The notes below the pieces were generated by a model that had not been told where the DNA came from, searched no databases, and was given only the letters and a program-made list of their open reading frames with translations. The position numbers were made by a program, and so were the translations under genes. A stretch of DNA of 59,824 nucleotides from Chitinophagaceae bacterium. Lineage in GTDB: Bacteria > Bacteroidota > Bacteroidia > Chitinophagales > Chitinophagaceae. Positions 14,540-48,674 of the stretch are shown in pieces. The first letter of the stretch is position 1, and every line of letters starts with the position of its first letter. Location of the stretch: positions 1 through 59,824 of the forward strand of contig DASTZB010000250.1 of assembly GCA_035764525.1 (NCBI GenBank), given 5' to 3'.

Positions 14540-17500
14540 TTAAATGTTCAACTGAATAATAAATTCACTTCCTTCTCCTTCTTTCGTTTCAACCTTCAAC
14601 TCACCACCATGTGCTTTTACAATATCATAACTCAGCGATAAACCTAAACCTGTTCCTTGTCCAGTTGGTTTGGTAGTAAAGAAGGGTTGAAATATTTTAT
14701 CCAATACTTTTTGCGGAATTCCATTTCCATTATCCTTCACTTTGATCTCGATCTTCTCATCTATTTTTTTGGTATATACAGTTACGGTCGGTTCATATCC
14801 ATTTGACTCTTGCTTTTTCTTTTCACTTACTGCATAAAAAGCATTGTTGATCAGGTTGACCAATACTCTGCCCATATCCTGTGAAATAATATTTACTTTT
14901 CCAATGCTGTTATCAAACTCGGTTTCAAATTTTGCATTGAAAGATTTATCCTTTGCCCGCAACCCATGATAAGCGAGCCGTAAATATTCATCAGCTAAAC
15001 CATTAATGTCTGTCGGTTCTTTTTTGCCACTGCTGCTGCGACTATGTTGCAGCATGCTTTTCACTATTGCATCTGCTCTTTTACCATGATGATTTATTTT
15101 TTCTAAATTCTGTATTACATCGTCAGCAATATCTTTTGCATCTTCAGTATTGCCGGTCTCCAATTCTGTTTTCATTTCATCCAGTAGCTCTTTACTTACT
15201 TCAGAAAAATTATTGACGAAGTTCAAGGGGTTTTGAATTTCATGTGCAATGCCTGCGGTCAACTCACCCAATGACGCCATTTTTTCTGATTGCACCAACT
15301 GCGTTTGTGCCTGCTTCAGATCGGTCAATGTATTTTCGACTTGTTGTTTGGCGGCTTCCAGCTTATTGAAATCTTCATAACGGGCATAGGCGGTAGAAAA
15401 TGCATCCGCGACATGTTGTATCAATTCTATTTGTTCTTCATTCAATTGTTCAGTATTACCTACATACAGCATACCCTGGAGGAAGGGAAGAAAATGCAAA
15501 TAGAATCCTCCTTGTGGAATTGTTTTTAAATATTGTTCTCTTGACGCAAGTGATCCTTGCTTCATTAGAATATCAGCAAACTGTATAAACTCTTCTTCAC
15601 CCCAGTGATCGACGTAGATTTTTTTATGCCGCCAATTAGCTACCACCTTCGAAATATTACCTGGTGTATCATATGGCAAATGAAATGCTGCTATTGCTTT
15701 GCCATCAGGCGTTGAAAGAAATGTATGAAGGAGTTGTTGATCTTCATCCATGATAAATACGCCGCAACGAATAAACGGAATACTTAAAGTTTTCAATTCG
15801 TTCCATATTAAGGGAGTAATCCTGTCAAGGTCACTAACACTACGCATGGATGCAATGTCAGCACGAACTCTATCCAATGCAGCTTGCTTCACTGCTTCTC
15901 TTGCATTGGCTTCCGATTTTTGCAATTCAAAATATCTTCTGAATGTAAGGTCAATGATGCCTTTAAAACGATTCAGGATATTTATTTCATTTTCTGAATA
16001 AGACTTATCTGTCCAGGAATAAAGAAAGCCCAGGGAAAAAGCAAAATAATAGCCATGCTCTTCCTGCTTGTTTTGAATATCCGTAACAGCCCAATGAGAC
16101 ATTTTCGAATAAAGTGCCGCATAATAAGACGTTAGATCTCCGCCGCGAAGAACAGTAAAATAGTTTTTATTATTTAACCAGGATTCATATTGCTTATCAA
16201 ACTCGGGGTGACCAGATAATTCGCTTTCACCTATCAAAGACAGTAAGTCATCTTGCTGCTTAGCCGTCGCAGAATACCACAAAACTCTCCTGGAATTTTT
16301 TGTTAGGAGTCCTACTCCACAACGGATAGAATTGATCCCAAGTTTTCTTAATTCGGTAAACACCATACTTGCAGTAATAGAAAGATCATTACTATTATGC
16401 ATCGCCATCGCTTTGCCTCTCACTTTTTCCAAAGCAGCTTCAATGGTTGCCTCTTTTGCCTGAGCTTCTGCTTTTTTCAGATCCTGGTAACGACGGAAGG
16501 TCAATGAAAACACAGAAGCAAATCTTTTCATTATTTGTTTTTCCTCTTCAGTGTGTGGCGTTAATGAATTGGTCCACACTCCCCCTTCACTAAAAGAATA
16601 TACCTGGAAATGCACATCCGGAAATTGCTGAATTGCCTGGGGCAGGTAGCCCTGGTTGGCATTTAATATTTTAATATAGTCTTCTTTTTCTTTACCGCTA
16701 AGGAAAGTATATACAAAATCCTTTTTGTTTTCCCACTCTTTATACATGAGTTGCCAGAAAGGATGATCATCCATATTGAATCTGCCAACAGCTTTTACGG
16801 CTTTTCCTTCTGCCAGGTTGTTGACGGACCAGACATCCTGTGTGCGGTCAGGATGTATATTGGTAATACCACCACGGAAATTTTCAATTCCTAATCTTTC
16901 TAATTCGGTGAACATTGTAGCAGTAGCGGCACCTACATCCTCGCTGCTATGCATAGCCATTGTTTTGGCACGAACTCTTTCAAGACCTGCTTCTACCTGA
17001 GCTTCTCTCGCCTGTGCTTCGGCTTTTTGAAGATCAAGGTATCGACGATAGGTTTGACCAAATACTCCTGCAAAACGTTTGAAAATTTTAGAGTGCTCTT
17101 CTGCAACCGGATCGTTGGTAAAAGAAAATACAGCGCCTTCAGGAAAAAAGAAATCGTTATGAAATTCTTTTACCGGCAATGCTTTTAAATCAAACTTCAC
17201 GGGGTAATATTCTGAGCGGTTGATGGCTTCATAATAACGGACGATATCATCACCCTGCAGGACATATTGATGTAATGATCTTTTATCATTCCATGCCCTA
17301 TAGGCCGAGCTCAACAAATCATGAACACTCAGATCCAGTTTGCCAATTATCAAAGTAGCTTTTCCTTCAGAATTGGATTTTGCAGTCCAAACTTCTGCTG
17401 AATTTTCATTGTCGAAGATCAGAATGCCGCAACGGTTCGTATGAATGTCAAGGTTTACAAATTCAGCAAACATTGTTGCCACCGTTTCTCCCACGTCCTT

Positions 17501-20500
17501 GCTGTTATGCATTGCCATCGTTTTACTTCTCACCCTTTCCAATGAAGTTTCAATTTGAGCTTCCCTTGCCTGCGCTTCGGCTTTTTGCAGATCGAGAAAA
17601 CGGGTATAAGCCTGGTCGAAAACTTTAGAAAATCTTACCAGGATCCCATTTGCCTCATCTGAAAACGCTTCACCATTGTAATTATGAATGAAGATGGAAG
17701 AATGTTTGGCGATGCCTGTAGCAACAGAATAAGCATGGCCATTTAAAATGAGTTTTTTTCTTTCTTCAGGCAAATATTTGTTATCGGAATGCTCAAACAT
17801 GTATTCGAAATACTTATTCTTTAAGTCGTGATCATAAATGGCTTTGTGAATAGATTCTCTTTTCTTAACTGCGTTGAAAAAATCGTTGGCGATCGGGTGA
17901 TCAAGATAAGGGAGATGAAAATTAGTTGTATAATCCTGTCCGGCGGCTGCTAACCATAGATCAAAATCTCGGGAGCCTTCATGAAAAATATTGATATTGA
18001 CAGAATCAATATTTTGCAATCCCAATGAGCGGAAATTCTCAAACACAACTTTCACTACATCTTTGAGTTCTTCGCTTTTATGCATAGCCAATGAGCTGGA
18101 CCGAACTCTCTCAAGTGCTGCTTCAATCTGTGCTTCTCTGGCCTGGGCTTCGGCTTTTTGCAGATCAAGAAAACGACGATAAGTAAGATTGAATACAGAG
18201 GCAAACCGTTCTAATATTTGAATGGTTTCTGCAGATTGTGGTTCATGCGATGTTACCAGTATCCAACCATGTGAAAAGAAAGCAAGATTCTGGGCACGGC
18301 GGTCTTTTATGAATTCATCTTTTACGGCTACGCCCATTTCCTCCCGCGCAAATTTTATCCATTCTTTTACATCATCCCCATGCAAATCGATCACCATTGA
18401 TCTTTTATTGTCTTTCCACGCCTGGTAACTTTTTGAAATAACAATTCTCTCATTTAATCTTGCCTTAACGCTTTTATCAATATGACTGCCCAACTGATCA
18501 GTTGTCCAGAAATTTACAACACCGTCAGTTTCATCCACAATACCGATGGAGATACGATCAGGAATGCCGCCAAGCTCCTGTAACTGGTGAAATAGGAGCT
18601 GAGCAGTTTCGGCCAATTCTTCGCTTCGGTGCATGGCCATTGTTCTTGCACGAACTCTTTCCAATGCCAGTTCAATTTGTGCTTCTCTTGCCTGGGCTTC
18701 GGCTTTTTGAAGATCTAAGAAACGAGTATATGTTTGTTCGAAAACTTTAGCAAATCGTCTCAAAATATCATTTTCACCTTCTGTGAATTTCCTTCCATGA
18801 TGATTTATAATAAATATGCTGGTATATTTTGAAACAGCAACAGAACGGGTATATCCGCCCGAACTTGAAAGAGTTTCTTTTTTCTGTTCATCATTAAGTT
18901 CCGACCATGGCTTATGCTTAAATAATTGTGTGAAGTATTCATTTTTTTCTTTTTGTGAAAATTCTTCCGTAAAAAATCCTGTTCCTCTTTTTATGCCATT
19001 GATCAGGTCTGTACAAAAAGGCATATTAAAATTTGGTACATAGACTTCTTCTGATGTATCAGCTGTACCTCCTGCACCCCAGCAACGCAACTCAGGTCCA
19101 ACATCTTCGTTAATGACTACAAACGATCCTCCGTCAATCGAAAGGTTGAGATTCAGGAGTTCTTTATGAACTGTGTGGATCACCTCTTGCAATTCGGAAG
19201 TTTGGTGCATAGCCATCGTCCGGCTTCTTACTCTTTCCAGGGCAGCTTCTATCTGGGCTTCTTTTGCCTGTGCCTCGGCTTGTTTCAAATCGAGGAAACG
19301 TGTATAAGTAAGATCAAATACACCAGCAAATCGTTCAAGCAAGCGCCTGCTTTCTTCGGGACGTGGTATTGGAGAAGAATAAGCAATTACTCCTTTGGAA
19401 AATGCAGCGGCAGTGATCACTCTTCTACCCAATGTATCCATGCTGCTTACGGTTATACCACTCGCTTCATTACGGTAACGAATCCAATCTTCCAATTCTT
19501 TACCGGTGAGATCAACCACTATGGAAAGTGTTTGCTCTTTCCATGCTTTGTAAAACTTACTGATCAATGATGGCTCATCAATACTTAACTTAAATGAACG
19601 ATCTACTTGTAATCCGCTACCACTCCAATCAGTAACGTTAAAATCAAAAACTCTTTCCTCTTCATTCATAACACCAATCGTCATCTGCATCAGGTCGTCA
19701 CCAAGATCTTGAAATTGCTTGAACAGTACAGCAGCTGTTTCGGATAGCTCATCACTTTTTTGCATTGCCATTGTTCTTGCACGAACTCTTTCCAGCGCCA
19801 ATTGTATTTGTGATTCTTTTGTTTGCTCTTCTGCTTTTTTCAGATCGAGAAACCTTGTGAAGGTGAGATCAAAAACATAGGAAAACCTTTCTAACAGTTT
19901 TATTGCTTCATCAGTTGCCGGAGTATCAGAAGATATACCTATCATTCCCCTGGAGAAAAAAACAGCATCTACATGCCACGCTTGTTGCTGAACAGCGTCC
20001 GAATCATCCCATCCTTTTTTTCCAATGAGGTTATTTCTCCATTTATTATATTCCTGTAATTCTTTCCCTTTGATAGTCGCAGAGAAATTTTTTTGCTTAT
20101 CCAGGAAAGCTTTTTTTGCTTTCTTCATTACGAAACTTTCCTTTTCAATTTCCATAGGGAATGAACGATCAATTTTCTCTCCTCTTAATGTCACAAACAT
20201 TTCTCCCATTTTTGTTGCCTCATCAAAAATGCAGAGGGAAACCTGCGCCGTTGTTGCTCCTAAGGCTTTGAATTGTTGAAATAAAACCAGTGTGGTTTCC
20301 TGCAGCTCAGCACTATGCTGCATCGCCATCGTTCTTGCACGAACTCTTTCCAATGCCAATTGAATTCTTGATTCTTTCGCCTGGGCTTCTGCTTGCTTTA
20401 AATCATTGAAACGAGTATAAGTAAGATCAAAAACTTTTGCAAAGCGAAGCAGTATATCAAAATGCTCATCAGATAACGGCTCGAGGCTTGCAACATTTAT

Positions 20501-23500
20501 TCCTCCGAAATTGTTGAACGAAGCTGATAGCAAAACTCTTTCAGGTGCACGCATACCATTCTTTACAACATCTGGCAGATTCACCAGTTCAGTTTCATTA
20601 AAAAGAATATCATCCCAGGAAATTTTATCTTGCCCCTTAAGATCATAGACAAACTTTACATTTTGCTTTTTCCATTCTTGTAAAAATGTAAGATAAGCTG
20701 GGTGCTTGTGATACTTTATTAAAAAGTTCATAGGATTAGAAGGCTCTTCGCTATTAGCCATCCACCATCTTGGTTCACTTGTTGCCGGATCAAAGACCCA
20801 AATGACACACCGGGTAAGAACAAGATCGAGTTTTGTTAATTCTGTAAATACATTACCGATGAGCACATTTAATTCTTCAGAAGTTTGCATTGCCATTGCA
20901 CGAGCCCTTACTCTTTCCAATCCAGCTTCAATCTGTGCTTCTCTTGTCTGCGCTTCGGCTTTTTGCAAATCAAGGAAACGGATATAAGATTGCTCAAAGA
21001 CCTTTGTAAACCGCTTCAATATTTCCTGCTGATCTTTTGAAAGTAAATTTTCTGTGCTTGTTGGAACAACGAGAGCAGAGTTTTTAGCAAAAGCCGCCGA
21101 AATTCCAAAATTTGCGCTTCCCAGGATTGCACTCTTTATAACATCCGGGATATTTTTATAATCAGAATGTTCAAAAAGAAAGTTGAAGTAGTCATTCTTC
21201 TCTTCCAAAGAATAAAGCTTTGAAAAAAATTCGGCACCATTTTCCCTGGCATCAAAAATATCTGATGATATGGAGTGGTTCGAATATGGAATTTTAAAAG
21301 GTATAGGATAGGATTGGTACCAATCTGCTATCCATTGAATATGATCTTTTGTCCCTTCACTAAATATCATAATAATGGCAGCTCCCTTATCCACTGAAAA
21401 ATTCAATTCTTTTAATTTGTCAAACACAATTGCAACAACTTCCCCGAGCTCATCACTGCGATGCATTGCAAGTGAACGTGACCGTACTTTTTCCAATGCT
21501 GCTTCTATTCTGGCTTCCATTGCCTGTGCTTCGGCTTTTTGAAGATCGAGAAAACGGGTATATGCCTGGCCAAATGCGTTTCCAAATTTTCTTAAGATCG
21601 CATGCTGTTCATCAGTAAAATTTGTTATATCGAATTTTCCAATAGAAAGCCATGTATCCTTTAATGCTAAATTGGAAGTAGTATAACCAGGTTTTGCATA
21701 TTGAATAGTTCTATACTCCCCCGGTACATCCTTAAAAACTGTTTTGGTAAAAAGATGATCAAGCCAGCGGTCTTTATCATCTTTGCCGAAAGCTAATATG
21801 AAAAAATCATGGCCGGTTCGGCGATATTCATTAAGCTCTTCAACTGCTTTATTAAATAATAGGTGGTCAAAGTATGGAATAAAAACCCTGGCAGATATGG
21901 GATCGCCACCAGGAATAATAGCAAAATTCCAAATGTCAATACCTTCAGAAATATCCAATCCATTTGCGCCAAAATTGGCCCATTCAATATCAAACCCAAG
22001 ATGTATAAATTGTTCACCTATTACATTGATCACCTCTAAAAATTCCGATGGCTTTTGCATTGCCATCGTTTTTGCCCGAACTCTTTCTAATGCCAGCTCT
22101 ATTTCTGCTTCTCTTGTCTGCGCTTCGGCTTTTTGGAGATCGAGAAAACGGATATAGGCTTGTTCGAAAACATTTGCGAAGCGTTTAAATACAGCATTTT
22201 CTTCTAAGGTATAAGAAAAGCCTTCATAGTTGGAAATGACCAACCAGAGATCCTTCATTAAGAATAATGACCGTGCAAAACCTTTGCTATTTAATACAAA
22301 TTGTTTTCTTGATTCCGGTGCATTTTTTGCGATCGTGTTTTTAAAGAAGTGACGGAAAAATTTATTTGATTCTTTCTTATCATATACATCAGTAAAAAAA
22401 TCAAGTTTTTTAGCTATTATGTCTTTTAATTGATTAAAAATTTTGTGATCTAAATAGGGAACATAGATCCTGTCGGGGTATGATTGCTCGGGAGTAGAAA
22501 GCCAAAGATCCCAACTGCCATCTGAATATACTTTGGCAAAATTTGCAGTATTAAATTTGAATCCAAGCAACATAAGCTGCTCGGTGACAACTTTGATCAC
22601 TTGCTGCAGATCGTTACTATGATGCATGGCCATTGACCTGGATCTCACTCTTTCCAATGCTGCTTCGATCTGTGCTTCTCTTGCTTGTGCTTCTGCCTTT
22701 TTCAGATCATTGAATCGTGTATAGCTGAGATCAAATACTTTTCCAAAACGATGAAGGATATCAAACTTTTCGTCTGTTAGTGCTTCTGTTTCTACAATTT
22801 CCAATGCGCCGAAATTGTTGAACGATGCTGAAAAGGCTACTTGCTTTGGGTTAATTAACGCTTTGCGCAGAGCATCTGGAAGGTCAGGCAATTCTTTAAA
22901 GAAAGCTTTTTCAAATGTCTTTTTTGCCTGTCCTTTTAATGTGTAGGTCCATTTTTGATCTCTCGCCTTCCATGCTTGAGTGATGGATCTGAAAAAAGAA
23001 TTATGGAATGGTTGAATGCGGAAAGGCTTTGCTGGTTTATTCGCTTTTGCACTTGCGATCCATAAGGTATCAGTGGCGTTATGATGATCGTGTATCCAGA
23101 TGATGCTACTGGTCAATGCAAAACCAAGCGCCGTAAGTTCTTTAAATACTGTTGCAACGAGATCCGCCAATTCATCAGAATGTTGCATAGACATAGCCCT
23201 TGCACGAACTCTTTCCAGGGCTGCTTCAATTTCTAACTTACGATTTTTTTCATCTAATTCAATAGTACGTTTCGTCATTGCATCTCGAAGCTGTATATTC
23301 TCAGCCTTTATTTTTTCCGTACTTACTCGTTCTCCTCCTTCTGTTTTTGAATCAGGAAAAGATCCATGTTGGTAGATCACTTTCCATTTATTTTTTTTAT
23401 TATGAAATAGGCTTGATATCCGTGCCGCACCATAAAATGCCCATTGATCATCTATGAGCAAGTAAAAATCTGATTCCTCATTTACCATAAAACCTTTATC

Positions 23501-23746
23501 AGCAGGCATCACGTTGATCTTCCTGTTCCGGAATTCTGCCTTCCCCGTTATCTGTTCGGCAGTAGACTTATAATATTTAACAGCTGATTTTTTATTGTTG
23601 AATACTTCGCCGGCAGCTGAACCAATTATATAACAGTTATTATCCAGAATGGACGCAAAGGTTCGCATATCACCACTGAGATAAGCGTGCCACACATCAT
23701 TGTATGCTTTCAAAACGTCTGCTTCCAATTTTTTGGTCAGTGTCAT
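14540..23746 (-). CDS. Giant soluble multi-module sensor histidine kinase (NTF2/SnoaL-like cap, 14 tandem GAF-like modules, DHp/HATPase)
   Basis: One uninterrupted ORF; the track lists 14540..23797 (3085 aa). I prefer the ATG at 23746 (MTLTKKLEADVLKAY...). It aligns with the start of the upstream paralogue (MKLTKKLEAEVLKVY...) and sits 1 nt after that gene's stop (TAGAATG). No TM segment is visible. ERVR-type connector motifs occur 14 times. The C-terminus carries the shared kinase cassette. Confidence 0.9.
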   Translation of the reverse strand: MTLTKKLEADVLKAYNDVWHAYLSGDMRTFASILDNNCYIIGSAAGEVFNNKKSAVKYYKSTAEQITGKAEFRNRKINVMPADKGFMVNEESDFYLLIDDQWAFYGAARISSLFHNKKNKWKVIYQHGSFPDSKTEGGERVSTEKIKAENIQLRDAMTKRTIELDEKNRKLEIEAALERVRARAMSMQHSDELADLVATVFKELTALGFALTSSIIWIHDHHNATDTLWIASAKANKPAKPFRIQPFHNSFFRSITQAWKARDQKWTYTLKGQAKKTFEKAFFKELPDLPDALRKALINPKQVAFSASFNNFGALEIVETEALTDEKFDILHRFGKVFDLSYTRFNDLKKAEAQAREAQIEAALERVRSRSMAMHHSNDLQQVIKVVTEQLMLLGFKFNTANFAKVYSDGSWDLWLSTPEQSYPDRIYVPYLDHKIFNQLKDIIAKKLDFFTDVYDKKESNKFFRHFFKNTIAKNAPESRKQFVLNSKGFARSLFLMKDLWLVISNYEGFSYTLEENAVFKRFANVFEQAYIRFLDLQKAEAQTREAEIELALERVRAKTMAMQKPSEFLEVINVIGEQFIHLGFDIEWANFGANGLDISEGIDIWNFAIIPGGDPISARVFIPYFDHLLFNKAVEELNEYRRTGHDFFILAFGKDDKDRWLDHLFTKTVFKDVPGEYRTIQYAKPGYTTSNLALKDTWLSIGKFDITNFTDEQHAILRKFGNAFGQAYTRFLDLQKAEAQAMEARIEAALEKVRSRSLAMHRSDELGEVVAIVFDKLKELNFSVDKGAAIIMIFSEGTKDHIQWIADWYQSYPIPFKIPYSNHSISSDIFDARENGAEFFSKLYSLEEKNDYFNFLFEHSDYKNIPDVIKSAILGSANFGISAAFAKNSALVVPTSTENLLSKDQQEILKRFTKVFEQSYIRFLDLQKAEAQTREAQIEAGLERVRARAMAMQTSEELNVLIGNVFTELTKLDLVLTRCVIWVFDPATSEPRWWMANSEEPSNPMNFLIKYHKHPAYLTFLQEWKKQNVKFVYDLKGQDKISWDDILFNETELVNLPDVVKNGMRAPERVLLSASFNNFGGINVASLEPLSDEHFDILLRFAKVFDLTYTRFNDLKQAEAQAKESRIQLALERVRARTMAMQHSAELQETTLVLFQQFKALGATTAQVSLCIFDEATKMGEMFVTLRGEKIDRSFPMEIEKESFVMKKAKKAFLDKQKNFSATIKGKELQEYNKWRNNLIGKKGWDDSDAVQQQAWHVDAVFFSRGMIGISSDTPATDEAIKLLERFSYVFDLTFTRFLDLKKAEEQTKESQIQLALERVRARTMAMQKSDELSETAAVLFKQFQDLGDDLMQMTIGVMNEEERVFDFNVTDWSGSGLQVDRSFKLSIDEPSLISKFYKAWKEQTLSIVVDLTGKELEDWIRYRNEASGITVSSMDTLGRRVITAAAFSKGVIAYSSPIPRPEESRRLLERFAGVFDLTYTRFLDLKQAEAQAKEAQIEAALERVRSRTMAMHQTSELQEVIHTVHKELLNLNLSIDGGSFVVINEDVGPELRCWGAGGTADTSEEVYVPNFNMPFCTDLINGIKRGTGFFTEEFSQKEKNEYFTQLFKHKPWSELNDEQKKETLSSSGGYTRSVAVSKYTSIFIINHHGRKFTEGENDILRRFAKVFEQTYTRFLDLQKAEAQAREAQIELALERVRARTMAMHRSEELAETAQLLFHQLQELGGIPDRISIGIVDETDGVVNFWTTDQLGSHIDKSVKARLNERIVISKSYQAWKDNKRSMVIDLHGDDVKEWIKFAREEMGVAVKDEFIKDRRAQNLAFFSHGWILVTSHEPQSAETIQILERFASVFNLTYRRFLDLQKAEAQAREAQIEAALERVRSSSLAMHKSEELKDVVKVVFENFRSLGLQNIDSVNINIFHEGSRDFDLWLAAAGQDYTTNFHLPYLDHPIANDFFNAVKKRESIHKAIYDHDLKNKYFEYMFEHSDNKYLPEERKKLILNGHAYSVATGIAKHSSIFIHNYNGEAFSDEANGILVRFSKVFDQAYTRFLDLQKAEAQAREAQIETSLERVRSKTMAMHNSKDVGETVATMFAEFVNLDIHTNRCGILIFDNENSAEVWTAKSNSEGKATLIIGKLDLSVHDLLSSAYRAWNDKRSLHQYVLQGDDIVRYYEAINRSEYYPVKFDLKALPVKEFHNDFFFPEGAVFSFTNDPVAEEHSKIFKRFAGVFGQTYRRYLDLQKAEAQAREAQVEAGLERVRAKTMAMHSSEDVGAATATMFTELERLGIENFRGGITNIHPDRTQDVWSVNNLAEGKAVKAVGRFNMDDHPFWQLMYKEWENKKDFVYTFLSGKEKEDYIKILNANQGYLPQAIQQFPDVHFQVYSFSEGGVWTNSLTPHTEEEKQIMKRFASVFSLTFRRYQDLKKAEAQAKEATIEAALEKVRGKAMAMHNSNDLSITASMVFTELRKLGINSIRCGVGLLTKNSRRVLWYSATAKQQDDLLSLIGESELSGHPEFDKQYESWLNNKNYFTVLRGGDLTSYYAALYSKMSHWAVTDIQNKQEEHGYYFAFSLGFLYSWTDKSYSENEINILNRFKGIIDLTFRRYFELQKSEANAREAVKQAALDRVRADIASMRSVSDLDRITPLIWNELKTLSIPFIRCGVFIMDEDQQLLHTFLSTPDGKAIAAFHLPYDTPGNISKVVANWRHKKIYVDHWGEEEFIQFADILMKQGSLASREQYLKTIPQGGFYLHFLPFLQGMLYVGNTEQLNEEQIELIQHVADAFSTAYARYEDFNKLEAAKQQVENTLTDLKQAQTQLVQSEKMASLGELTAGIAHEIQNPLNFVNNFSEVSKELLDEMKTELETGNTEDAKDIADDVIQNLEKINHHGKRADAIVKSMLQHSRSSSGKKEPTDINGLADEYLRLAYHGLRAKDKSFNAKFETEFDNSIGKVNIISQDMGRVLVNLINNAFYAVSEKKKQESNGYEPTVTVYTKKIDEKIEIKVKDNGNGIPQKVLDKIFQPFFTTKPTGQGTGLGLSLSYDIVKAHGGELKVETKEGEGSEFIIQLNI
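15340..23290 (-). repeat. In-frame tandem array of 14 protein modules, about 555-600 nt each, inside the giant kinase gene
   Basis: The reverse-complemented (E/D)(R/K)VR codons lie near 15870, 16425, 16980, 17535, 18110, 18658, 19235, 19788, 20345, 20910, 21485, 22083, 22650 and 23210. These positions were located by eye and are approximate. Each is preceded by a near-identical tract of the type gcctgtgcttcggctttttgcagatcgagaaaacgggtata. Confidence 0.9.
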
Positions 23747-23747
23747 T

Positions 23748-26700: not shown

Positions 26701-28406
26701 ACCTGCTGAAATAATAGTGCCGCTGCATCTTTTAATTCATCACTATGCTGCATGGCCATTGTTCTTGCACGAACTCTTTCTAATGCTAATTGAATTTGCG
26801 ATTCCCTTGCCTGCTCTTCTGCCTGTTTCAGATCATTAAAACGGGTATAGGTTTGCTCAAATACAGCTGCAAATCTTTTTAGCAGATCAAATGTTTCATC
26901 GGATATGTCTTCATTACAAGAGAAGGACAACCATCCTTTGGAAAAGAAAATAATATTGACGATCCAACGATCTTCAGGAAAATTTACTTTCGTTTCAAAA
27001 AAACTATTACGGTGTTCATTATAGTTTTTTAATTCCTGTCCTGCAAACTCCAATTTCAGCGATTTACTTTTTGCTTTCCATGCGGCAACTGCTTTAGCCA
27101 TCACATAGGGGTCATTGATCGGAACATTAAGGGTATGTGGCAAATGGTGGCCCTGAACTGTTGTAGATAATTCCACAAATCCTGCATCCTCATTAACGAT
27201 TCCAATAGAATTTTGTACAGCCGTCAAACCTAATTCTTTTACTTGTTGAAAGAGCAGGTATGATGTTTCTGGAAGTTCATTACTTTTTTGCATAGCCATT
27301 GTTCTTGCACGAACCCTTTCAAGAGCCAATTGGATCTGAGATTCTCTTGCCTGTGCTTCAGCTTTTTCAATATCCAAATACCTGCGATAAGCCAGTCCAA
27401 AAACTTTCAGAAACCTTTTGAATAATGTTGTTCCCTCTTCTGTTAACGGATGATAGGTTGAAATGCCCAACGCAACTGGCCCCAGGGAATACCAATAATA
27501 GCTGAGCGATGATGCGGTGTATAAATATTTATCAATAAAAACATTTATCGTTTTTTGAAATGCCACCCATTCTCGTACTTTCTGATTCCCTTTGATATGC
27601 GCAATTGAAACTGATCCTTTTCCTTTCAACATCTTCGCGGCAAATGCCTTGTCAATTTTATGACCGGTATAACTTGAATCGGTGACTATTGCTTTTCGGT
27701 GTTTGACATAATATTGATAATTCATGTATTTGCCACGATCCTTATAAAAGATAGCGGTCATCACATTGCGGATCTCTTTTACCCCCAGGCCTTTTAATTC
27801 TGATGAAATGGTTTTGCATACATCCATCATATCAGCGGCTTTATTCATCGCCATAGCAACGGCTCTCACTCTTTCTAATGCTGATTCAATTTCCAGTTCA
27901 CGATTTTTTTCTTCCAGTTCAATTGTTCTTCTCTTTACTGCATCACGCAATTGAATATTTTCAGCTTTAATTTTTTCTGCAGCAAGTTGTTCACCTTCCT
28001 CAGCTCTCATATCAGGAAAAGAACCATGTTGATGTACCAGTTTCCATCCTGTCTTTGTATGTTTAAGTATCGCTGAAGCACGAATATTGCCATAAAATGT
28101 CCATTTCTTTTCCATTAAAATATAGAGATCACAATGTTCGTTGATCAAAATGTTTTCATTAAGCGCATGTACAGTGATGTGCCTTTTTCGGAATTGAGCT
28201 TTACCTACCAGCTGATCAGCTGTAGCTTTATAAAATTTGAGTGTTTCTTTTTTGCTATTAAAAATCTCACTGACAGCTGTCCCAATTATAATAATTTCAT
28301 CATCCAGAAAAGAAGCAAATGTTTTCATATCTCCACTGAAATAGGCATCCCAATAGGCTTTATATACCTTCAAAACTTCTGCTTCCAGTTTTTTAGTGAG
28401 TTTCAT
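23748..28406 (-). CDS. Giant soluble multi-module sensor histidine kinase (NTF2/SnoaL-like cap, 6 GAF-like modules, DHp/HATPase)
   Basis: 1552 aa ORF. The first approximately 135 aa look like an NTF2/SnoaL/DUF4440-type fold (YWDAYFSGDMKTFASFLDDEIIIIGT...GWKLVHQHGSFP). Six connector motifs follow (ALERVRA.., ALEKVRSRTMAMQRS.., SVDRVRAEIASMRTT). Then comes the shared kinase cassette. No TM segment. Confidence 0.92.
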   Translation of the reverse strand: MKLTKKLEAEVLKVYKAYWDAYFSGDMKTFASFLDDEIIIIGTAVSEIFNSKKETLKFYKATADQLVGKAQFRKRHITVHALNENILINEHCDLYILMEKKWTFYGNIRASAILKHTKTGWKLVHQHGSFPDMRAEEGEQLAAEKIKAENIQLRDAVKRRTIELEEKNRELEIESALERVRAVAMAMNKAADMMDVCKTISSELKGLGVKEIRNVMTAIFYKDRGKYMNYQYYVKHRKAIVTDSSYTGHKIDKAFAAKMLKGKGSVSIAHIKGNQKVREWVAFQKTINVFIDKYLYTASSLSYYWYSLGPVALGISTYHPLTEEGTTLFKRFLKVFGLAYRRYLDIEKAEAQARESQIQLALERVRARTMAMQKSNELPETSYLLFQQVKELGLTAVQNSIGIVNEDAGFVELSTTVQGHHLPHTLNVPINDPYVMAKAVAAWKAKSKSLKLEFAGQELKNYNEHRNSFFETKVNFPEDRWIVNIIFFSKGWLSFSCNEDISDETFDLLKRFAAVFEQTYTRFNDLKQAEEQARESQIQLALERVRARTMAMQHSDELKDAAALLFQQVKALGVPAYSCGYNIWEKDETTFTSWMSTQDGSDFNAVQNIPLTEDANFIRFAESRERGEQFFVLELRGEKMQQHYEYLKTIPAFKAYFDHAISVGFDLPETQIHHLANFSQGNLLFITLEPCPEFHGVFKRFAAVFEQTYTRFLDLQKAEAQAREARIENALEKVRSRTMAMQRSEELPEAANNLFLQVQALEIPAWSAGYCIWDEDKKGITFWMSSEGVMQPSAHAPCTEDPSFIHMREAYERGDAFHVEELGGEALVTHYNYMRTLPVVGEILDSIIAAGHPLPVFQIFHCVYFSQGFLLFITYEKVPEAHIIFKRFTNVFEQTYTRFLDLQKAEAQVREAKIEAALEKVRSRTMAMQRSAELAEVATVLFQQVKALGVPQWTCGFGIFEIDDKEFIWYQGSEDGDILPPCKIPLTEHPVFIQFNESRKRNDGLYIYEKTGEMQADHYKYMLSLPVLGKLLQDRLDAGIQFPTFQIDHIVNFSHGNLVFITYEHFPEMHDIFKRFAKVFDQTYTRFLDLQKAEAQAREAVKQASVDRVRAEIASMRTTSDLERITPLIWNELKTLGVPFIRCGVFIIDEEQQQVHTFLSTPDGKANASFTSAISTVSIITEALPYWRRKEMYKAHWDEATFIEQTKHLVEQGAVSSTNTYLTENRPKNLYLHLLPFLQGILYVGNETPLSDDELQLVQNLADAFAIAYARYEDFNKLELAKEQIENTLVDLKQTQAQLVQSEKMASLGELTAGIAHEIQNPLNFVNNFSEVNKELLAEMNEEIEKGNMEEVKALAKDVIDNEEKINHHGKRADAIVKGMLQHSRSSSGVKEPSDINVLADEYLRLAYHGLRAKDKSFNATMKTDFDETIGKIDIVPQDVGRSVLNLITNAFYAVSEKKKQSAEGYEPTVTVTTKRINGKIEIRVADNGNGIPQKVLDKIFQPFFTTKPTGQGTGLGLSLSYDIVKAHNGELKVETNEGKGSEFIIFLPANN
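24550..27960 (-). repeat. In-frame tandem array of 6 protein modules, about 540-567 nt each
   Basis: Connector (RVR) codons lie near 25085, 25650, 26210, 26777, 27317 and 27870 (approximate). The conserved nucleotide tract is the same as in the 14-module gene. Confidence 0.9.
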
Positions 28407-30457: not shown

Positions 30458-30468
30458 TTGTATAATAA

Positions 30469-33400
30469 TTATTTCATAGGTAAACTTATTATAAATGATG
30501 ACCCCTCACCTTCTTTAGTTTCTACTTTTATTTCACCATCATGTCCTTTTGTAACAATATCATAACTCAACGATAAGCCTAATCCTGTTCCCTGGCCCGT
30601 CGGCTTGGTGGTATAGAATGGTTGAAATATTTTATCCAAATCTTTTTGGGGAATACCGTTACCATTATCAATTACCCTGATCTCAACAACCCCCAAACCC
30701 CCTAAAGGGGGCTTTACAGCTTTAGTAGTGACGATAACCATTGGCTCATAGCCGTTACCCGTCTTCTTTTTCTTTTCACTTACTGCGTAGAAAGAATTAT
30801 TGATCAGGTTAAGAATCACTCTACCTATTTCCTGCGGAACGATATTTATTTTGGCTATGGATCGGTCAAGATCTGTGTCAAATTTTGCATTAAAGAATTT
30901 ATCCTTTGCTCTTAATCCATGATAAGCAAGCCTGAGATATTCTTCTGCTAATGTATTTATATCTGTCAGCTCTTTTTGTCCCCCGCTGCTTCGGCTATGT
31001 TGTAACATCCCTTTTACAATTGCATCTGCCCGTTTGCCGTGGTGTAAGATCTTTTCTAAATTTTCTTTTACATCGAGTGCAATTTCTTTTGCTCCTTCTG
31101 TATTTCCTTTTTCAAGCTCGGTTTTCATTTCTTCCAATAGCTCATTGCTTACATCAGAAAAATTATTTACAAAGTTCAACGGGTTTTGAATTTCATGTGC
31201 AATACCAGCAGTCAATTCACCAAGAGATGCCATCTTCTCGGATTGTATCAATTGTTTTTGTGTAGCCTGTAATTCTGTAAGTGCATCTTCGGCTCTTTTC
31301 TTTTCTTCTTTTAGTTTTATTAAGTCAGTTCGTGCCTGCGTTAGATCTTTAAAACGTGAATACGCTAAAGAAAAAACGGAAGCTGCTCTTCTCAGCATAC
31401 GCCAACTTTCTTCTGAAATATCACCTGCTGCTGCAGCCCCGATAGCCCCATGCGAAAACTTATACAAATGATAAGTTCTGTCAGGAATCACTTCTCCATA
31501 ATATCCCCGCAAAAGAGCAGAGTTTTCTTCACAGTAACGGATCCATTCCTTCCTGTTAGCTCCCTGCATCACAATGGAGATCTGTTTTTTGGGTGATCGG
31601 TAAAATTGCAACATCTCCCTACCCACCCAGGTATCATTGAGATTGAGTGCAAAATGATCATTCACTAATTTCTTTCCTTCAGCCTTTATATCTTTCAATG
31701 CGTACCAGCATTCAGCTTTTTCAGCACTTTCATCATTAATATAAATACTGCATGTCTCCAATTCTTCCACACCCAGTAATCCCATTTCCACTCTTAATAC
31801 TTCTGCTACCTCTTTTAACTCTTCTGGTTCCTGCATCGCCAATGCTCTTGCCCGAACTCTTTCCAGTGCGGTTTCAATTTTTGCTTCTCTTGCCTGTGCT
31901 TCGGCTTTTTGCAGATCAAGAAAACGGGTATAGGCTCTTTCAAACTCTATTGCAAAACGGCATTGAATATTTTTTTCTTCGTCAGTTGCAGGTTTACAGA
32001 TGCAAATACCAAATGAACCATACTTCATCATGGCATCGTAATAATATACACCTTTAGAAAAAGTATCAAAGACCATTACTCTTTTTGCTTCACCACCTGC
32101 ATTATCGGCAATACGCTGAAATGTATCGAGCCAATTCTGTACTCTTTCCGGCGGTACATAGTTGTCATGAATTTTTACTCCGGCCCGCCATGATATAAGA
32201 CAATCATTAAAATATTGTTCTGCTTCTGCCAACGTATAAGAAGTAAAACTTGTTTTATGATCCGGCCAGGTTATCCAGAATGTATTTTCATTTTTTGCTT
32301 CATCCACCAACCAGAAATAGGAGAACTGCCATTCAATACCTAATTTTCTTAATTGCTCTCCAAAAACCAGTGATGTCTCATTCAGATCCTTTGAATTCGA
32401 CATGGCCATCACCTTTGCTCTCACTTTTTCTAATGCTGCTTCGATCTGTGCATCTCTTGCCTGTGCTTCGGCTTGCTTTAGATCATTGAAACGTGTATAC
32501 GTGAGATCAAAAACTTTTGCAAAACGACTAACAATATCCATTTGCTCTGCAGATAATTCAACAGGGCCTGATGCTTCAAGCAAACCAAAATTGTTGAACG
32601 ATCCGGAAACAATAGTATGCTCGGAATTTAGTATCCCGTTCTTAACAGCATCGGGAAGATGAGACAATTCCGTTTCGTTCAGCAATAATTTATCTATTGT
32701 TTTTTTCTCATCACCTTTCAGATCATACACCCATTTTGGATCTTTTTCCTTCCATCCCTTAATGACCGCTTCATAATAAGAGTGCTGAAGTCTTTTAATA
32801 TAATAACTCTCAGCTGATCTTTTATCTTCTGAATTTGCCATCCATAATCTTGCTGATAATGTATCGTTATCAAATATCCAGATGATACAACGGGCAAGTA
32901 TTAGATCGAGCTTTGTGAGTTCTTCAAATAAAATTTCAACAAGATCATTCAGCTCATCAGAATTTTGCATCGCCATGGCTCTTGCTCTCACTCTTTCCAG
33001 TCCCAATTCAATCTGCGCCTCTCTTGCCTGTGCTTCGGCTTTTTGCAGATCGAGGAAACGGGTATAGGTTCTTTCAAATTCATTAGCAAAGCGGCTGAGG
33101 GTCTTTTTTTCATCTTTCGTTAAATCGGCTGCAGCCATTACACCAAAGCAGCCATATTTCATGAAAGCTTCTACATAATACAAGCCACCCGAAAAATATT
33201 CCGGTTTCAGTTTTTCAACTCCATCAATCAACTCTTGCCATGCAGCAAAATAATTTTCAACAGCAGCAGGTGGTACACGATATGAATAAACAGGCTCATT
33301 GCTTTTCCAGTCAACAAGACATTGTGCTGTGGCAGGCTCGTTTCTGTCAAGCGGATAATTAATGGCCTTACTTTTAAAAACCGTTGAGCCGTTTTTATCT

Positions 33401-35940
33401 TCTCCCCAGGCAGCCCAAAAAATATGACGGTCTTTGTCTTCATCAGGAAGCCATAAAAATGAAAATGCTGAATTGATACCAAGCAATAGCACCTGCTGGT
33501 GAAAGACACGTAAGGTATCATCCAGTTCTTTCGAATGCTGCATGATCATACTTTGCGTACGGGTACGTTCCAGTGCTGTTTCGATCTTTGCTTCTCTTGC
33601 CTGTGCTTCGGCTTTTTGAAGATCAAGAAAACGGGTGTATGCCTGATCAAATACGTTTGCAAATCTTTTAACGATTTGGTTATCCTGATCAGAAAATGAT
33701 TTTTTAGAATAACTGGTAATATGAATACCCGTATTTCTTGCCAGGGCTACCGACATCGTAGCGAGCTCAGCTTCCAATAGAAATTGCTTTTGCTTTTCGG
33801 GAACATATTTAAAATCAGTATTTTCAAAAAGATGATGAAACAGTTCATTCTTTTCATCAAAAGGATAGCATTTTGAAAGCAAGTCACCTCCATTTTCCCT
33901 TATTTTAAACAGGTCGTTGAAATATGAAATGTGGGTATAAGGAACTAATATCTTCGGGTATTGTTGATTTGCCTTGCTTTCAAGCCACCAAATGATATCC
34001 TTTGAGTCTTCTGTAAAAAGAATAATTATGGCTGTATAAAAATCAACATTTAGTTCCTTTAATCGTTCAAAAACTGTATGAACCACTTCCTGCAGCTCAT
34101 CGCTCTTATGCATCGCTAAAGAACGGGAACGAACTTTTTCAACAGCCGCTTCTATTTGTGCTTCTCTTGCCTGGGCTTGTGCTTTTTCAATATCCTGGTA
34201 TCTGCGATACGCTAATTCAAATACATTTCGAAAACGTTTGAACAGGTCGATCTCATTTTCATTTAATGGAACATATGTGGACATACCCAATGCCACAGGT
34301 CCCAATGAATACCAGTAATAATTAAGCGAGTCAGAGGTTTCCAGGTAAGTATCAATAAATACATTAGTTGATCGTTGGTAGTCGAGCCAGTCTTTCACTT
34401 CTTCTCCTTTAAACCCATGTGTCCAAACCTGGTTGGGTCCTTTGAGCATTTGGTTGGCAAATTTTTCTGCTACCGGGTGATTATTATAATCTACCTCTGT
34501 GACCAACAGCTTATCATGCTTTGCATAATATTCATAATTCATGTAAGAGCTCTTCTCTTCATAGAAGATCGCTGTCTGTATATTGCGGATCTTCTTTACA
34601 TCCAGAATCTCCAATTGATCTGAAATGATCTTACACACATCCAGCATATCAGCCGGTTCTTTCATCGCCATGGCGGCAGTACGTACTCTTTCTAATGATC
34701 TTTCTATTTTTAATTCTTCATTTGCTTTTTCGATCTTTTCATTTAGCTCAGTCAATTCTTTATTACGCTGACTTACTACCTCTGCTTTGTGAGAAATTTC
34801 AAGATTGGCAATTTTTTGATTTATACTGTTTTTATGAAGTTCCTTTTCTATTTGAAAATGAGCTTCCAGCTGAACAAGCGATTCTTTAAAATCACCCTTT
34901 TGCTGGTAATACTCATGCAAATTATAATACGTATTGCTCAAGAGGTCCTGTGCCTTTATTTCATCAGCAATTTTCAAGGCGCCGGAAAGCCATTCAAAAA
35001 TTTGATGATCTTCAACATCGTTTCGGTTCTTATACAGATTGGCAAGAAATATTAACACTTCTGCTTCTCCTCTTTTGTCTCCCCTTGCTTTTCTTATTTC
35101 AAGGCTTTCATTCGAAAATTTTGAAGCTTGTTTAATATCACCAGCCTGCTCATATATTTCTGCCAGGTGAAGCAGCGCATTGGCTTCTCCTTTTTTATCA
35201 CCTGAATTTTGACTTATTATCAAACTTTGCTTGCAATAATCAATTGCCTTATCAAGGTCATTAAGTTTAAGATAGGTGAAACCGATATTGTCCAGGCTTC
35301 CTGCTTCTCCCCATTTATCATTAGACTCCTGGCGGATAACAAGACCCCGCTGGTAACAATCCAATGCATGATTATAGTCTCCATTATCAAAATAGATGGA
35401 ACCGATAATATTAGTGGCATATGCTTCCATTAAGATATTCCCCGAGCTTTTCGCAATTGCAAGAGCTTTATATAAATAATCCAGGGCGTTTTCATGATTG
35501 CCAAGATGTTTATAGGTAACTCCTATGTGATAACAACATGTTACCTCAATTTCTAATGAACCTATTTGTTGTATTAAAGCATATCCTTTTAGCAAAAGTT
35601 CTAATGAGGTACCTAAGTTTCCCCAATTACGTTCGATAATTCCTAGGTATTCGTAAACAACCGCCTGGCCCTTAATATCATTTAGGGATTGAAACAAAGA
35701 AAGAGCCTCCCTAAGGAGTGGAGCTGCTTCATCGTTTTTAAACAGCCTGACATTGCCGAATCCTAACGAGCGAAGTCCTTCGGCCAATCCTTTGGTATAA
35801 TTAATGTTTCTTGCCAGTTTTACAGATTCTTCGCTTAGCTGAAAAGCTTTGGGAAAATCGGTGACCCGTGCCTCCCATGCTTGCTGGTTAAGCTCATCAA
35901 TTTTTTCCTTCAGTGATTGTATAGCAATTTCATTACTCAT
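30469..35940 (-). CDS. Giant soluble multi-module sensor histidine kinase (cytoplasmic TPR region, 6 GAF-like modules, DHp/HATPase)
   Basis: 1823 aa ORF with no signal peptide and no TM segment. The first approximately 340 aa are TPR_12-like repeats (GEAGSLDNIGFTYLKLNDLDKAIDYCKQSL, GEANALLHLAEIYEQAGDIKQA). Six connector motifs follow (SLERVRTAAMAM, AVEKVRSRSLAMH, ALERTRTQSMIMQ, GLERVRARAMAMQ, ALEKVRAKVMAMS, ALERVRARALAMQ). The kinase cassette ends the protein. Confidence 0.92.
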   Translation of the reverse strand: MSNEIAIQSLKEKIDELNQQAWEARVTDFPKAFQLSEESVKLARNINYTKGLAEGLRSLGFGNVRLFKNDEAAPLLREALSLFQSLNDIKGQAVVYEYLGIIERNWGNLGTSLELLLKGYALIQQIGSLEIEVTCCYHIGVTYKHLGNHENALDYLYKALAIAKSSGNILMEAYATNIIGSIYFDNGDYNHALDCYQRGLVIRQESNDKWGEAGSLDNIGFTYLKLNDLDKAIDYCKQSLIISQNSGDKKGEANALLHLAEIYEQAGDIKQASKFSNESLEIRKARGDKRGEAEVLIFLANLYKNRNDVEDHQIFEWLSGALKIADEIKAQDLLSNTYYNLHEYYQQKGDFKESLVQLEAHFQIEKELHKNSINQKIANLEISHKAEVVSQRNKELTELNEKIEKANEELKIERSLERVRTAAMAMKEPADMLDVCKIISDQLEILDVKKIRNIQTAIFYEEKSSYMNYEYYAKHDKLLVTEVDYNNHPVAEKFANQMLKGPNQVWTHGFKGEEVKDWLDYQRSTNVFIDTYLETSDSLNYYWYSLGPVALGMSTYVPLNENEIDLFKRFRNVFELAYRRYQDIEKAQAQAREAQIEAAVEKVRSRSLAMHKSDELQEVVHTVFERLKELNVDFYTAIIILFTEDSKDIIWWLESKANQQYPKILVPYTHISYFNDLFKIRENGGDLLSKCYPFDEKNELFHHLFENTDFKYVPEKQKQFLLEAELATMSVALARNTGIHITSYSKKSFSDQDNQIVKRFANVFDQAYTRFLDLQKAEAQAREAKIETALERTRTQSMIMQHSKELDDTLRVFHQQVLLLGINSAFSFLWLPDEDKDRHIFWAAWGEDKNGSTVFKSKAINYPLDRNEPATAQCLVDWKSNEPVYSYRVPPAAVENYFAAWQELIDGVEKLKPEYFSGGLYYVEAFMKYGCFGVMAAADLTKDEKKTLSRFANEFERTYTRFLDLQKAEAQAREAQIELGLERVRARAMAMQNSDELNDLVEILFEELTKLDLILARCIIWIFDNDTLSARLWMANSEDKRSAESYYIKRLQHSYYEAVIKGWKEKDPKWVYDLKGDEKKTIDKLLLNETELSHLPDAVKNGILNSEHTIVSGSFNNFGLLEASGPVELSAEQMDIVSRFAKVFDLTYTRFNDLKQAEAQARDAQIEAALEKVRAKVMAMSNSKDLNETSLVFGEQLRKLGIEWQFSYFWLVDEAKNENTFWITWPDHKTSFTSYTLAEAEQYFNDCLISWRAGVKIHDNYVPPERVQNWLDTFQRIADNAGGEAKRVMVFDTFSKGVYYYDAMMKYGSFGICICKPATDEEKNIQCRFAIEFERAYTRFLDLQKAEAQAREAKIETALERVRARALAMQEPEELKEVAEVLRVEMGLLGVEELETCSIYINDESAEKAECWYALKDIKAEGKKLVNDHFALNLNDTWVGREMLQFYRSPKKQISIVMQGANRKEWIRYCEENSALLRGYYGEVIPDRTYHLYKFSHGAIGAAAAGDISEESWRMLRRAASVFSLAYSRFKDLTQARTDLIKLKEEKKRAEDALTELQATQKQLIQSEKMASLGELTAGIAHEIQNPLNFVNNFSDVSNELLEEMKTELEKGNTEGAKEIALDVKENLEKILHHGKRADAIVKGMLQHSRSSGGQKELTDINTLAEEYLRLAYHGLRAKDKFFNAKFDTDLDRSIAKINIVPQEIGRVILNLINNSFYAVSEKKKKTGNGYEPMVIVTTKAVKPPLGGLGVVEIRVIDNGNGIPQKDLDKIFQPFYTTKPTGQGTGLGLSLSYDIVTKGHDGEIKVETKEGEGSSFIISLPMK
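31340..34760 (-). repeat. In-frame tandem array of 6 protein modules, about 552-573 nt each
   Basis: Connector codons lie near 31860, 32428, 32993, 33566, 34138 and 34690 (approximate). Confidence 0.9.
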
Positions 35941-47842: not shown

Positions 47843-47849
47843 AATAAAA

Positions 47850-48653: not shown

Positions 48654-48674
48654 TCATTTATAAAAAAATAAGTT

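Follow-up and report, generated by a model that had tools for sequence, protein, structure and literature searches.

Three genes in a 59,824-nucleotide (nt) stretch of DNA from a Chitinophagaceae bacterium (assembly GCA_035764525.1, contig DASTZB010000250.1, positions 1 to 59,824 of the forward strand; hereafter the window) encode very large soluble proteins, here called A, B and D. Our bioinformatic analysis gives good support to the view that they are cytoplasmic sensor histidine kinases whose input consists of 14, 6 and 6 highly divergent GAF-fold domains, respectively. It is equally well supported that they belong to a large unnamed family, confined to Bacteroidota and Ignavibacteria, in which the number of modules varies from 1 to at least 21 and their order is variable. 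Each module consists of a near-invariant helical connector and a variable core.

Tandem modules in genes A, B and D

Gene A (14540..23797; A, B, D and their parts all lie on the minus strand) encodes, in order, a SnoaL_3/NTF2-like domain, a signalling helix (S-helix), 14 GAF-like modules and a HisKA plus HATPase_c kinase core. Gene B (23748..28406, 1552 amino acids (aa)) has a SnoaL_3 domain, an S-helix, six modules and a kinase core, and gene D (30469..35940, 1823 aa) has a TPR region, a coiled coil, six modules and a kinase core. The open reading frame (ORF) of gene A is 3085 aa long and shares 50 nt with the end of gene B (23746-23797), an overlap abolished by a start at M18 (coordinate 23746). 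Of the two products named in the initial annotation, 3085 and 3068 aa, the shorter is the likelier; M18 is probably the true start, since the N-terminal region then has the family's typical length of 168 aa and the gene starts 1 nt past the gene B stop codon.

Pfam and NCBIfam cover only the ends of the three proteins. At the N-terminus these are SnoaL_3 in A (PF13474, aa 28-149, 23351..23716, E-value 8.6e-14) and B (28011..28376, E 2.5e-19) and the TPR region in D (34951..35862). At the C-terminus they are the HisKA plus HATPase_c cores of A (14549..15271, to which the NCBIfam kinase models are confined), B (23754..24485) and D (30475..31224). A, B and D each match HATPase_c, with E-values of 1e-21 to 1e-23; HisKA reaches or exceeds the gathering cutoff of 26.9 bits in A (30.3) and D (26.9) and stays below it in B (23.2 bits, E 7.4e-5), and the H-box with its phospho-accepting His is present in A, B and D. 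The 1100-2650 residues between the annotated ends carry no annotation. All three are soluble, as initially proposed: the maximum hydropathy over 19 residues (Kyte-Doolittle) is below 1.5 in each, versus more than 2.1 in the neighbouring membrane kinases.

The unannotated residues are occupied by the modules. The core motif of the connector, [LVI][ED][RK][VT]R, occurs 14, 6 and 6 times in A, B and D at a spacing of 180-198 aa and never in the neighbouring kinases, and all 26 modules (about 187 aa each) can be aligned end to end, which bears out the 14, 6 and 6 tandem units counted in the initial annotation within ORFs that do exist. Its division of each unit into a near-invariant connector and a variable core also holds, with a mean identity among the 26 modules of 55% in the connectors and 16% in the cores (range 6-55%). 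At the DNA level the repeats form families of 19-22 copies spaced by about 560 nt and only 60-76% identical; connector DNA is about 70% identical, and the longest exact match is 32 nt. The repeats are therefore old and diverged, and not the product of a recent expansion or of misassembly.

The subtypes of the modules, defined below from the whole family, read DBBBDCCBCBCCCG in A, ECAAAG in B and EBFDFH in D. The array of A runs from A1 (subtype D, 22682..23242) through A2, A3 and A4 (all B; 22115..22681, 21521..22114 and 20945..21520), A5 (D, 20378..20944), A6 and A7 (both C; 19820..20377 and 19265..19819), A8 (B, 18689..19264), A9 (C, 18140..18688), A10 (B, 17567..18139) and A11, A12 and A13 (all C; 17009..17566, 16457..17008 and 15902..16456) to A14 of the kinase-proximal subtype G (15347..15901), which is 55% identical to B6. 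In B, module B1 (27348..27902; 54% identical to D1) belongs to subtype E, the commonest first type, and is followed by B2 (C, 26808..27347), by B3, B4 and B5 (all A; 26241..26807, 25680..26240 and 25116..25679) and by B6, again of the kinase-proximal subtype G (24561..25115). The six modules of D are D1 (E, 34168..34719), D2 (B, 33598..34167), D3 (F, 33025..33597), D4 (D, 32458..33024), D5 (F, 31891..32457) and D6 (H, 31336..31890).

The assignment of the modules to GAF domains comes from structure prediction, the check recommended with the initial annotation. A single-module AlphaFold2 model of A9, built with the 26 paralogues as alignment, has a predicted local distance difference test score (pLDDT) of 92.5 and a predicted TM-score (pTM) of 0.88, and its elements follow the order H-H-E-E-E-H-E-H-E-E-H with a long final helix. 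When this model was compared with the PDB by Foldseek, the best 50 matches were all GAF domains (E-values down to 2.7e-5, TM-scores 0.5-0.6, sequence identity 8-17%), among them PtsP, Nlh2, cAMP-bound Lcd1, CyaB2 and phytochromes; a PAS or other fold was rejected on the same 50 matches. As GAF fold we took a central antiparallel sheet of about six strands with N- and C-terminal helices on one face and further helices or loops on the other. The modelled subtypes C and B are predicted to have this arrangement, and the full-length alignment suggests it for the other subtypes. A two-module model of A9-A10 (pLDDT 90.4, pTM 0.71), in which A10 forms a second half of GAF-like topology, contains an unbroken 48-residue helix (165-212) that leads from the last helix of the first core through the connector, followed by a 4-residue break and the first helix of the next core. 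In protein A this predicted helix corresponds to aa 1856-1903 (18089..18232) and comprises the last GAF helix and LDLQKAEAQAREAQIEAALERVRSSSL. The best Foldseek matches of the two-module model are tandem GAF proteins, namely CyaB2 (1ykd, E 3.8e-10), a GAF-PHY protein (8w26), PDE6C and PDE5A, with 9cxg, 3lfv and 8ufi among the entries (E 4e-10 to 8e-9 for 1ykd, 8w26, 9cxg and 3lfv); the model thus has the predicted architecture of a tandem GAF protein, with consecutive GAF folds on one long joining helix.

The assignment rests on fold because the sequence likeness to GAF domains is statistically undetectable. A whole-protein Pfam scan gave one GAF_2 match below threshold, at residues 804-886 of D in module D3 (23.0 bits versus a cutoff of 28.6, E 1e-4), and a PDB sequence-profile search with the 26-module alignment gave nothing significant (best match RhlR, E 0.035). 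No Pfam or NCBIfam model covers the modules, in agreement with the initial annotation, which could not place the connector motif in any named family; its description of the modules as divergent GAF-like domains stands by fold and not by sequence detection.

Connectors, linkers and module exchange across the family

The connector is near-invariant. The gap from RF.DL to LERVR is exactly 20 aa in 1828 of 1829 family connectors, and the consensus, RF-LDLQKAEAQAREAQIEAALERVRARTMAM, resembles an S-helix. Across 1816 profiled connectors nearly every position from -11 to +36 is conserved, including positions outside the search pattern and positions expected to face the solvent (A7 0.95, E8 0.98, Q10 0.93, E13 0.95, I16 0.91, M30 0.99). 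Fourier analysis of connector hydrophobicity gives a peak at about 3.6 residues, the value of a generic amphipathic helix and not a clean heptad signal of 3.5 residues.

The S-helix, described by Anantharaman, Balaji and Aravind in 2006 (PMC1592074), is a conserved helix of about 40 residues (five heptads) between two signalling domains, with ERT at positions c, d and e of the central heptad together with E14, R16 and E23. The connector shares with it the location between signalling domains and a length of some 40-50 residues (the predicted 48-residue helix between GAF cores), and its core E-R-V-x-x-R-T-x-x-M aligns with the E-R-V-x-E-R-T-x-E-L of the S-helix (PMC1592074). The equivalents of a neighbouring E, R16 and V17 are kept in 94%, 82% and 88% of the 1816 connectors. 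The ERT signature is not: the equivalent of its E is A (51%) or S (43%), R is found in 62% and T in 41% (S 29%, A 23%), and the equivalent of E23 is A in 81%. The modelled connector helix also ends four residues past RT, and the connector is conserved on all faces, whereas the S-helix is conserved mainly at a, d, e and g. Because A or S replaces the E of the defining ERT, the connector is best called S-helix-like, related in pattern and not a canonical S-helix. The initial annotation of signalling-helix-type connectors is thereby upheld for the continuous helix and the general pattern and fails for the signature. In A and B a canonical S-helix, KRTIELDEKNRKLE, does lie between the NTF2-like domain and the first module; the corresponding S-helix-like segment of gene A, LRDAMTKRTIELDEKNRKLE, lies at 23219..23320 and is canonical by the definition in PMC1592074.

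The join to the kinase is constrained in another way. In 176 of 176 proteins the phospho-accepting His lies 39, 46, 53 or 60 aa from the RF.DL of the last module, and division of each of these lengths by 7 leaves 4. The distance is 46 aa in A (from RYEDF of the last module to His2852, 15242..15382) and in B, and 53 aa in D after module D6. Heptad periodicity, which the PAS/GAF-to-DHp coiled-coil linkers of sensor histidine kinases also show in their lengths, is expected from studies of PAS-kinase linkers for a continuous coiled coil running into the DHp domain; the difference here is that the quantised linker follows up to 20 further modules of fixed spacing. Among the evidence from sequence, this quantisation speaks most strongly for an array that feeds the DHp domain through an in-register coiled coil.

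Comparison among family members points to exchange of single modules. Protein D and the protein L057_3 are 83% identical over the 405 aa of the TPR region and 74% over the kinase, yet no pair of their cores exceeds 36% and none is orthologous. In a module-by-module matrix, A is collinear with P0340, with insertions and replacements, and permuted relative to P0376, which has the order m6, m8, m7, m5. Modules 2, 5 and 6 of B are 91%, 83% and 95% identical to modules 9, 11 and 12 of one 12-module protein (P0288, for the match of B2 to module 9). Single cores that are 81-91% identical between two proteins sit between cores that are 18-29% identical: the A5 core is 82% identical to that of L002 module 6 (flanking cores 23-29%), the A8 core 81% to that of L050 module 3 (22-26%) and B3 91% to L054 module 5 (18-22%). 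In seven of nine tested cores that are 70-91% identical between two proteins, all flanking cores are only 17-29% identical; in the other two, both from B, one or two neighbours are moderately alike (44-63%), and the shared blocks are partly longer. The nine comparisons indicate that identity usually shifts abruptly across the connectors, and exchange of whole modules at these points appears well supported by the sequences. The connector itself may plausibly serve as the recombination joint, because reading frame and helical phase would be preserved there and because its synonymous sites are slightly over-conserved (0.56 versus 0.42 predicted from codon usage).

The search for relatives that the initial annotation had called for was run as an exhaustive module-profile search over 1.84 billion representative proteins and returned 3303 protein clusters at E-values up to 1e-3 and 1924 at up to 1e-30; the best 150 of the 3303 clusters have 7-17 modules and up to 3880 aa. 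Array lengths are taken from this search, another homologue search having given only fragments of up to 346 aa. A genome scan with a connector-only alignment found at least 533 loci in Bacteroidota (Chitinophagales, Flavobacteriales, Cytophagales, Sphingobacteriales, Bacteroidales/Prolixibacteraceae and Saprospiraceae) and in Ignavibacteria. Complete ORFs in the 79 loci examined contain 1-20 modules (20 in L044, 4068 aa), and a truncated ORF of more than 4013 aa from Algoriphagus lacus (L049) contains at least 21. Contigs of up to 5.99 Mb in isolate genomes encode homologues of 2100-3300 aa, for example in Aquiflexum balticum DSM 16537, Christiangramia fulva, Lacibacter, Maribacter and Algoriphagus kandeliae, and the loci closest to the one studied here are from Chitinophagales and Sphingobacteriales (42-58% protein identity). 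Public names for the homologues are 'ATP-binding protein', 'sensor histidine kinase', 'NTF2 family protein', 'hypothetical' and 'RNA polymerase subunit N'. The last of these is spurious: the conserved A8-A9 connector (18700-18800; aa 1683-1722 of A) gives weak false Pfam matches to RNA_pol_N (PF01194) and DUF6139, and the JGI name 'DNA-directed RNA polymerase subunit N' of several homologues is a propagated annotation error caused by the PF01194 match. A literature search for giant or multi-GAF Bacteroidota kinases, SnoaL-GAF kinases and module shuffling yielded nothing relevant and no description of the family.

Clustering of 2148 cores gives about ten subtypes, each conserved across orders and each with its own motifs. 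Subtype G stands directly before the kinase in 87 of 160 proteins, with a linker of 46 aa (rarely 39 aa), and subtype E is first in 50 of 125; the order in the interior is free. Within-subtype identity is highest for G among the subtypes of the window (45%). Subtype J, which is absent from the window and is found for example in P0141, P0169 and L074_5, has a within-subtype identity of 65% and is rich in His, Trp and Asp ('LGHEAhYFWHMrWlPd...'), a composition suggesting that it could be a metal- or cofactor-binding variant.

Kinase cluster and output partners

Genes A, B and D are part of a run of at least 11 consecutive, co-directional and tightly packed paralogous histidine kinase genes on the minus strand (1-35940), the leftmost of which runs off the window edge. 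Eight of them encode ordinary kinases with TPR and one transmembrane (TM) segment, one of these (11764-14433) also with a bona fide GAF_2 domain; the other three, A, B and D, are very large and have no TM segment. The span 14540-35940, to which the arrays had initially been assigned, indeed holds the three array kinases and includes in addition one of the ordinary TPR-TM kinase genes, without modules (28403-30457). The ORFs of A, B and D are unbroken over 4.7-9.3 kb in DNA with a GC content of 38%. Across the 11 kinases of the window, identity in helix 1 of the DHp domain averages 88%, a near-identity that suggests a common partner for them and possibly the formation of heterodimers.

No response-regulator gene with a receiver (REC) domain was found in or beside the cluster within the window, beyond which the left end of the cluster lies. 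Directly upstream of gene D is a gene for an ATP-grasp protein (IQCH-like ATP-grasp plus PGM1 C-terminal domain; 36142-37719, minus strand). Farther away, on the plus strand, are a type IX secretion PorP/SprF gene (39070-40095), an MlaE/ABC/MlaD transporter (47084-49562) and a PAS-HisKA-HATPase-REC hybrid kinase followed by a single-domain REC protein (51432-53866), a two-component pair unrelated to the cluster; an AraC-type regulator gene (50795-51421) lies just upstream of this pair. The PorP/SprF gene agrees with an origin of the window in Bacteroidota.

Most arrays of the family end in a HisKA/HATPase kinase core, and two carry other outputs in its place: seven modules are fused to a SpoIIE PP2C phosphatase in Ignavibacterium sp. 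(L017, 8386-13635) and eight to a class III adenylate/guanylate cyclase (Guanylate_cyc) in a Saprospiraceae genome (L045, 8209-13491). Such a range of outputs (kinase, PP2C or cyclase) is what a generic signalling input typically shows. Of the 27 related loci that could be resolved, 9-11 have a CheY-like REC protein (about 130 aa) and a REC-nucleotide-cyclase (REC-Guanylate_cyc, about 350 aa) at the end of the kinase cluster. Such pairs are located at 18109-19562 in L001, 17915-19364 in L010, 15200-16614 in L019, 17948-19371 in L030, 17282-18744 in L047, 11986-13412 in L051, 15168-16591 in L056 and 16504-18069 in L074; in L053 (12540-14224) the pair is a variant with REC and REC-SpoIIE PP2C. 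Genes for YitT and/or HD-domain proteins follow the REC pair in all three loci scanned downstream (L010, L019 and L056). By analogy with these loci, there are hints that the clustered kinases drive a cyclic-nucleotide output.

Proposed dimeric integration and its alternatives

We propose that A, B and D work as dimers that integrate several inputs along a coiled-coil spine, and regard this as the best explanation overall and as reasonably probable. The proteins would form parallel homodimers, as tandem-GAF phosphodiesterases and phytochromes do; dimerisation would run through the connecting helices, for which the heptad-quantised linker to the DHp domain gives indirect support. Judging from the models, the last helix of each core should continue into the fixed-length connector and then into the first helix of the next domain, so that the connectors would make up a segmented coiled-coil spine flanked by GAF cores, and the last domain would be joined to the DHp phospho-histidine by a coiled coil varying in whole heptads. 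Individual cores may bind different small ligands or partners and thereby bias the conformation of the spine, and the summed signal would pass to the DHp/CA domains through the in-register linker. A, B, D and the neighbouring kinases would then probably phosphorylate a shared response regulator, for which the CheY-like REC protein and REC-nucleotide-cyclase at the cluster end of related loci are candidates.

Two groups of characterised proteins come close to such an arrangement. The tandem GAF-A/GAF-B proteins, cNMP phosphodiesterases PDE2, 5, 6, 10 and 11 and the cyanobacterial adenylyl cyclases CyaB1 and CyaB2, share the GAF fold and carry consecutive GAF domains on one long helix, which there is the dimer interface and transmits the signal to the catalytic output; they are also the best structural matches of the two-module model. 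They differ in having two such domains versus 6 to at least 21 here, in the NKFDE motif for cyclic nucleotides (cNMP), which the modules lack, and in sequence, where similarity is below detection; the sequence of their inter-GAF helices shows little conservation (PMC1592074), versus a connector near-invariant in sequence and length here. Phytochromes and cyanobacteriochromes with several GAF domains, such as PtxD/NpF2164 with seven, resemble the kinases in that their GAF arrays are strung along a helical spine that ends in a histidine kinase or a different output. The top Foldseek matches include GAF-PHY structures, and phytochrome-type GAF domains within one protein differ in specificity. The modules differ from them in lacking a conserved bilin-binding Cys, in having standardised connectors and in belonging to a family of Bacteroidota and Ignavibacteria, not of cyanobacteria. 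PtxD, with its seven GAF domains, has been called 'particularly complex' in a review (PMC5812497), and arrays of 14 to at least 21 exceed it two- to threefold. The initial remark that fourteen domains in one chain would be extreme is thus apt in relation to characterised proteins; within the family it is not, since at least 150 clusters contain 7-17 modules and single arrays run to 20 and to at least 21.

A number of observations weigh against the proposed integrators, or against the GAF assignment on which they depend. The AlphaFold2 models are of monomers and thus silent on coiled-coil formation and parallel orientation, and they cover subtypes C and B only. Conservation on all faces of the connector exceeds what a simple coiled coil needs. 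We know of no precedent for signal transmission across 14-20 domains. The prokaryotic tandem GAF domains of CyaB2 dimerise in antiparallel orientation (PMC1592074). A Pfam scan of the 26 single modules found GAF or GAF_2 in only two or three of them, with non-significant E-values of 0.02-0.03. When the module profile was compared by hhalign with the neighbouring GAF_2 domain, as a single sequence and as a 12-sequence alignment, the probability was 5-8% (E 0.004-0.0075), so that the sequence mirror of the GAF domain encoded at 11764..14433, from which the initial annotation had argued, is statistically unsupported. The NKFDE motif is found in none of the 26 modules of the window and in 15 of 2148 family-wide, and 10 of the 26 lack any Cys to which a bilin could be attached; both features mark subfamilies of GAF domains and not the superfamily as a whole. 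Only about one third of the resolvable related loci end in the REC pair, and the cluster in the window is without a response regulator. As a separate matter, cNMP-type and bilin-type GAF domains were ruled out as direct models for the modules on account of the missing NKFDE and Cys residues.

A more far-reaching version of the proposal holds that the modules form a standardised plug-and-play system, in which cassettes with a frame- and phase-preserving connector are swapped among paralogous kinases and occasionally cyclases or phosphatases. This would yield combinatorial multi-ligand integrators in the shape of rods about 50-100 nm long (a rough estimate from about 4-5 nm per module), with many kinases acting on one REC-cyclase. 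We put it forward tentatively, as a possibility that falls short of being probable; if true, these would be the longest sensor-domain arrays known, and rapidly re-wired ones. The invariant length and sequence of the connector also suggest a geometric building block, and it is conceivable, if rather unlikely, that only the N-terminal NTF2-like or TPR domain and/or subtype G senses, while ligand-free internal modules relay the signal or set the length of a rigid dimeric rod as a ruler, a scaffold or a means of localisation. Such a spacer would account for the absence of known GAF ligand motifs, for the free variation of array length from 1 to at least 21 modules and for a terminal subtype G that is the best conserved of the window and has a fixed 46-aa linker. 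It is at odds with the ratio of nonsynonymous to synonymous substitution rates of 0.04-0.15 in the closest cross-genome core pairs, a sign of strong purifying selection by which the cores are not neutral spacers. It also leaves about ten subtypes with their own polar and aromatic motifs kept across orders, and single modules kept 81-96% identical inside otherwise different arrays, whereas pure spacers should homogenise or drift.

Conserved subtype-specific surfaces, together with the conservation of solvent-facing connector positions, would also suit a docking array in which each subtype binds a different protein (a regulator, a kinase or a response regulator) and the giants act as signalling scaffolds and not as small-molecule sensors. 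The location of the genes among at least 11 paralogous kinases that have near-identical DHp domains and might heterodimerise fits this as well. We nevertheless consider it improbable: no partner gene regularly accompanies the arrays other than those for kinases and for the REC pair, GAF domains of characterised systems usually bind small molecules, and the Foldseek matches of A9 include cAMP- and bilin-bound GAF domains. An origin of the gene lengths in misassembly or repeat expansion, or of the modules in already annotated GAF or PAS domains, is effectively excluded. Repetitive genes do misassemble easily, and D does have a weak GAF_2 match at 804-886; against this stand the divergence of the repeats at the DNA level (60-76% identity, exact matches of 32 nt at most), the intact ORFs over 4.7-9.3 kb, the homologues of 2100-3300 aa on contigs of up to 5.99 Mb in isolate genomes, and modules that Pfam, NCBIfam and PDB sequence profiles leave uncovered and public names leave uninformatively labelled. 

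Multi-GAF sensor proteins as such are already known; what sets these arrays apart is how large they are, how uniform their joints are and that they evolve in the manner of cassettes. The family marks an annotation gap, in that thousands of very large signalling proteins of Bacteroidota and Ignavibacteria consist mostly of domains from a family still uncharacterised, a gap that a module profile would mend. Arrays of 14 to at least 21 sensor-fold domains raise the question how, or whether, a signal crosses so many domains, and the fixed-length connector together with the heptad-quantised linker constitutes a natural experiment on helical-spine signalling. The exchange of single-module cassettes suggests natural standardised junctions that could be used to build chimeric sensors, and it offers a model for the evolution of sensory repertoires.

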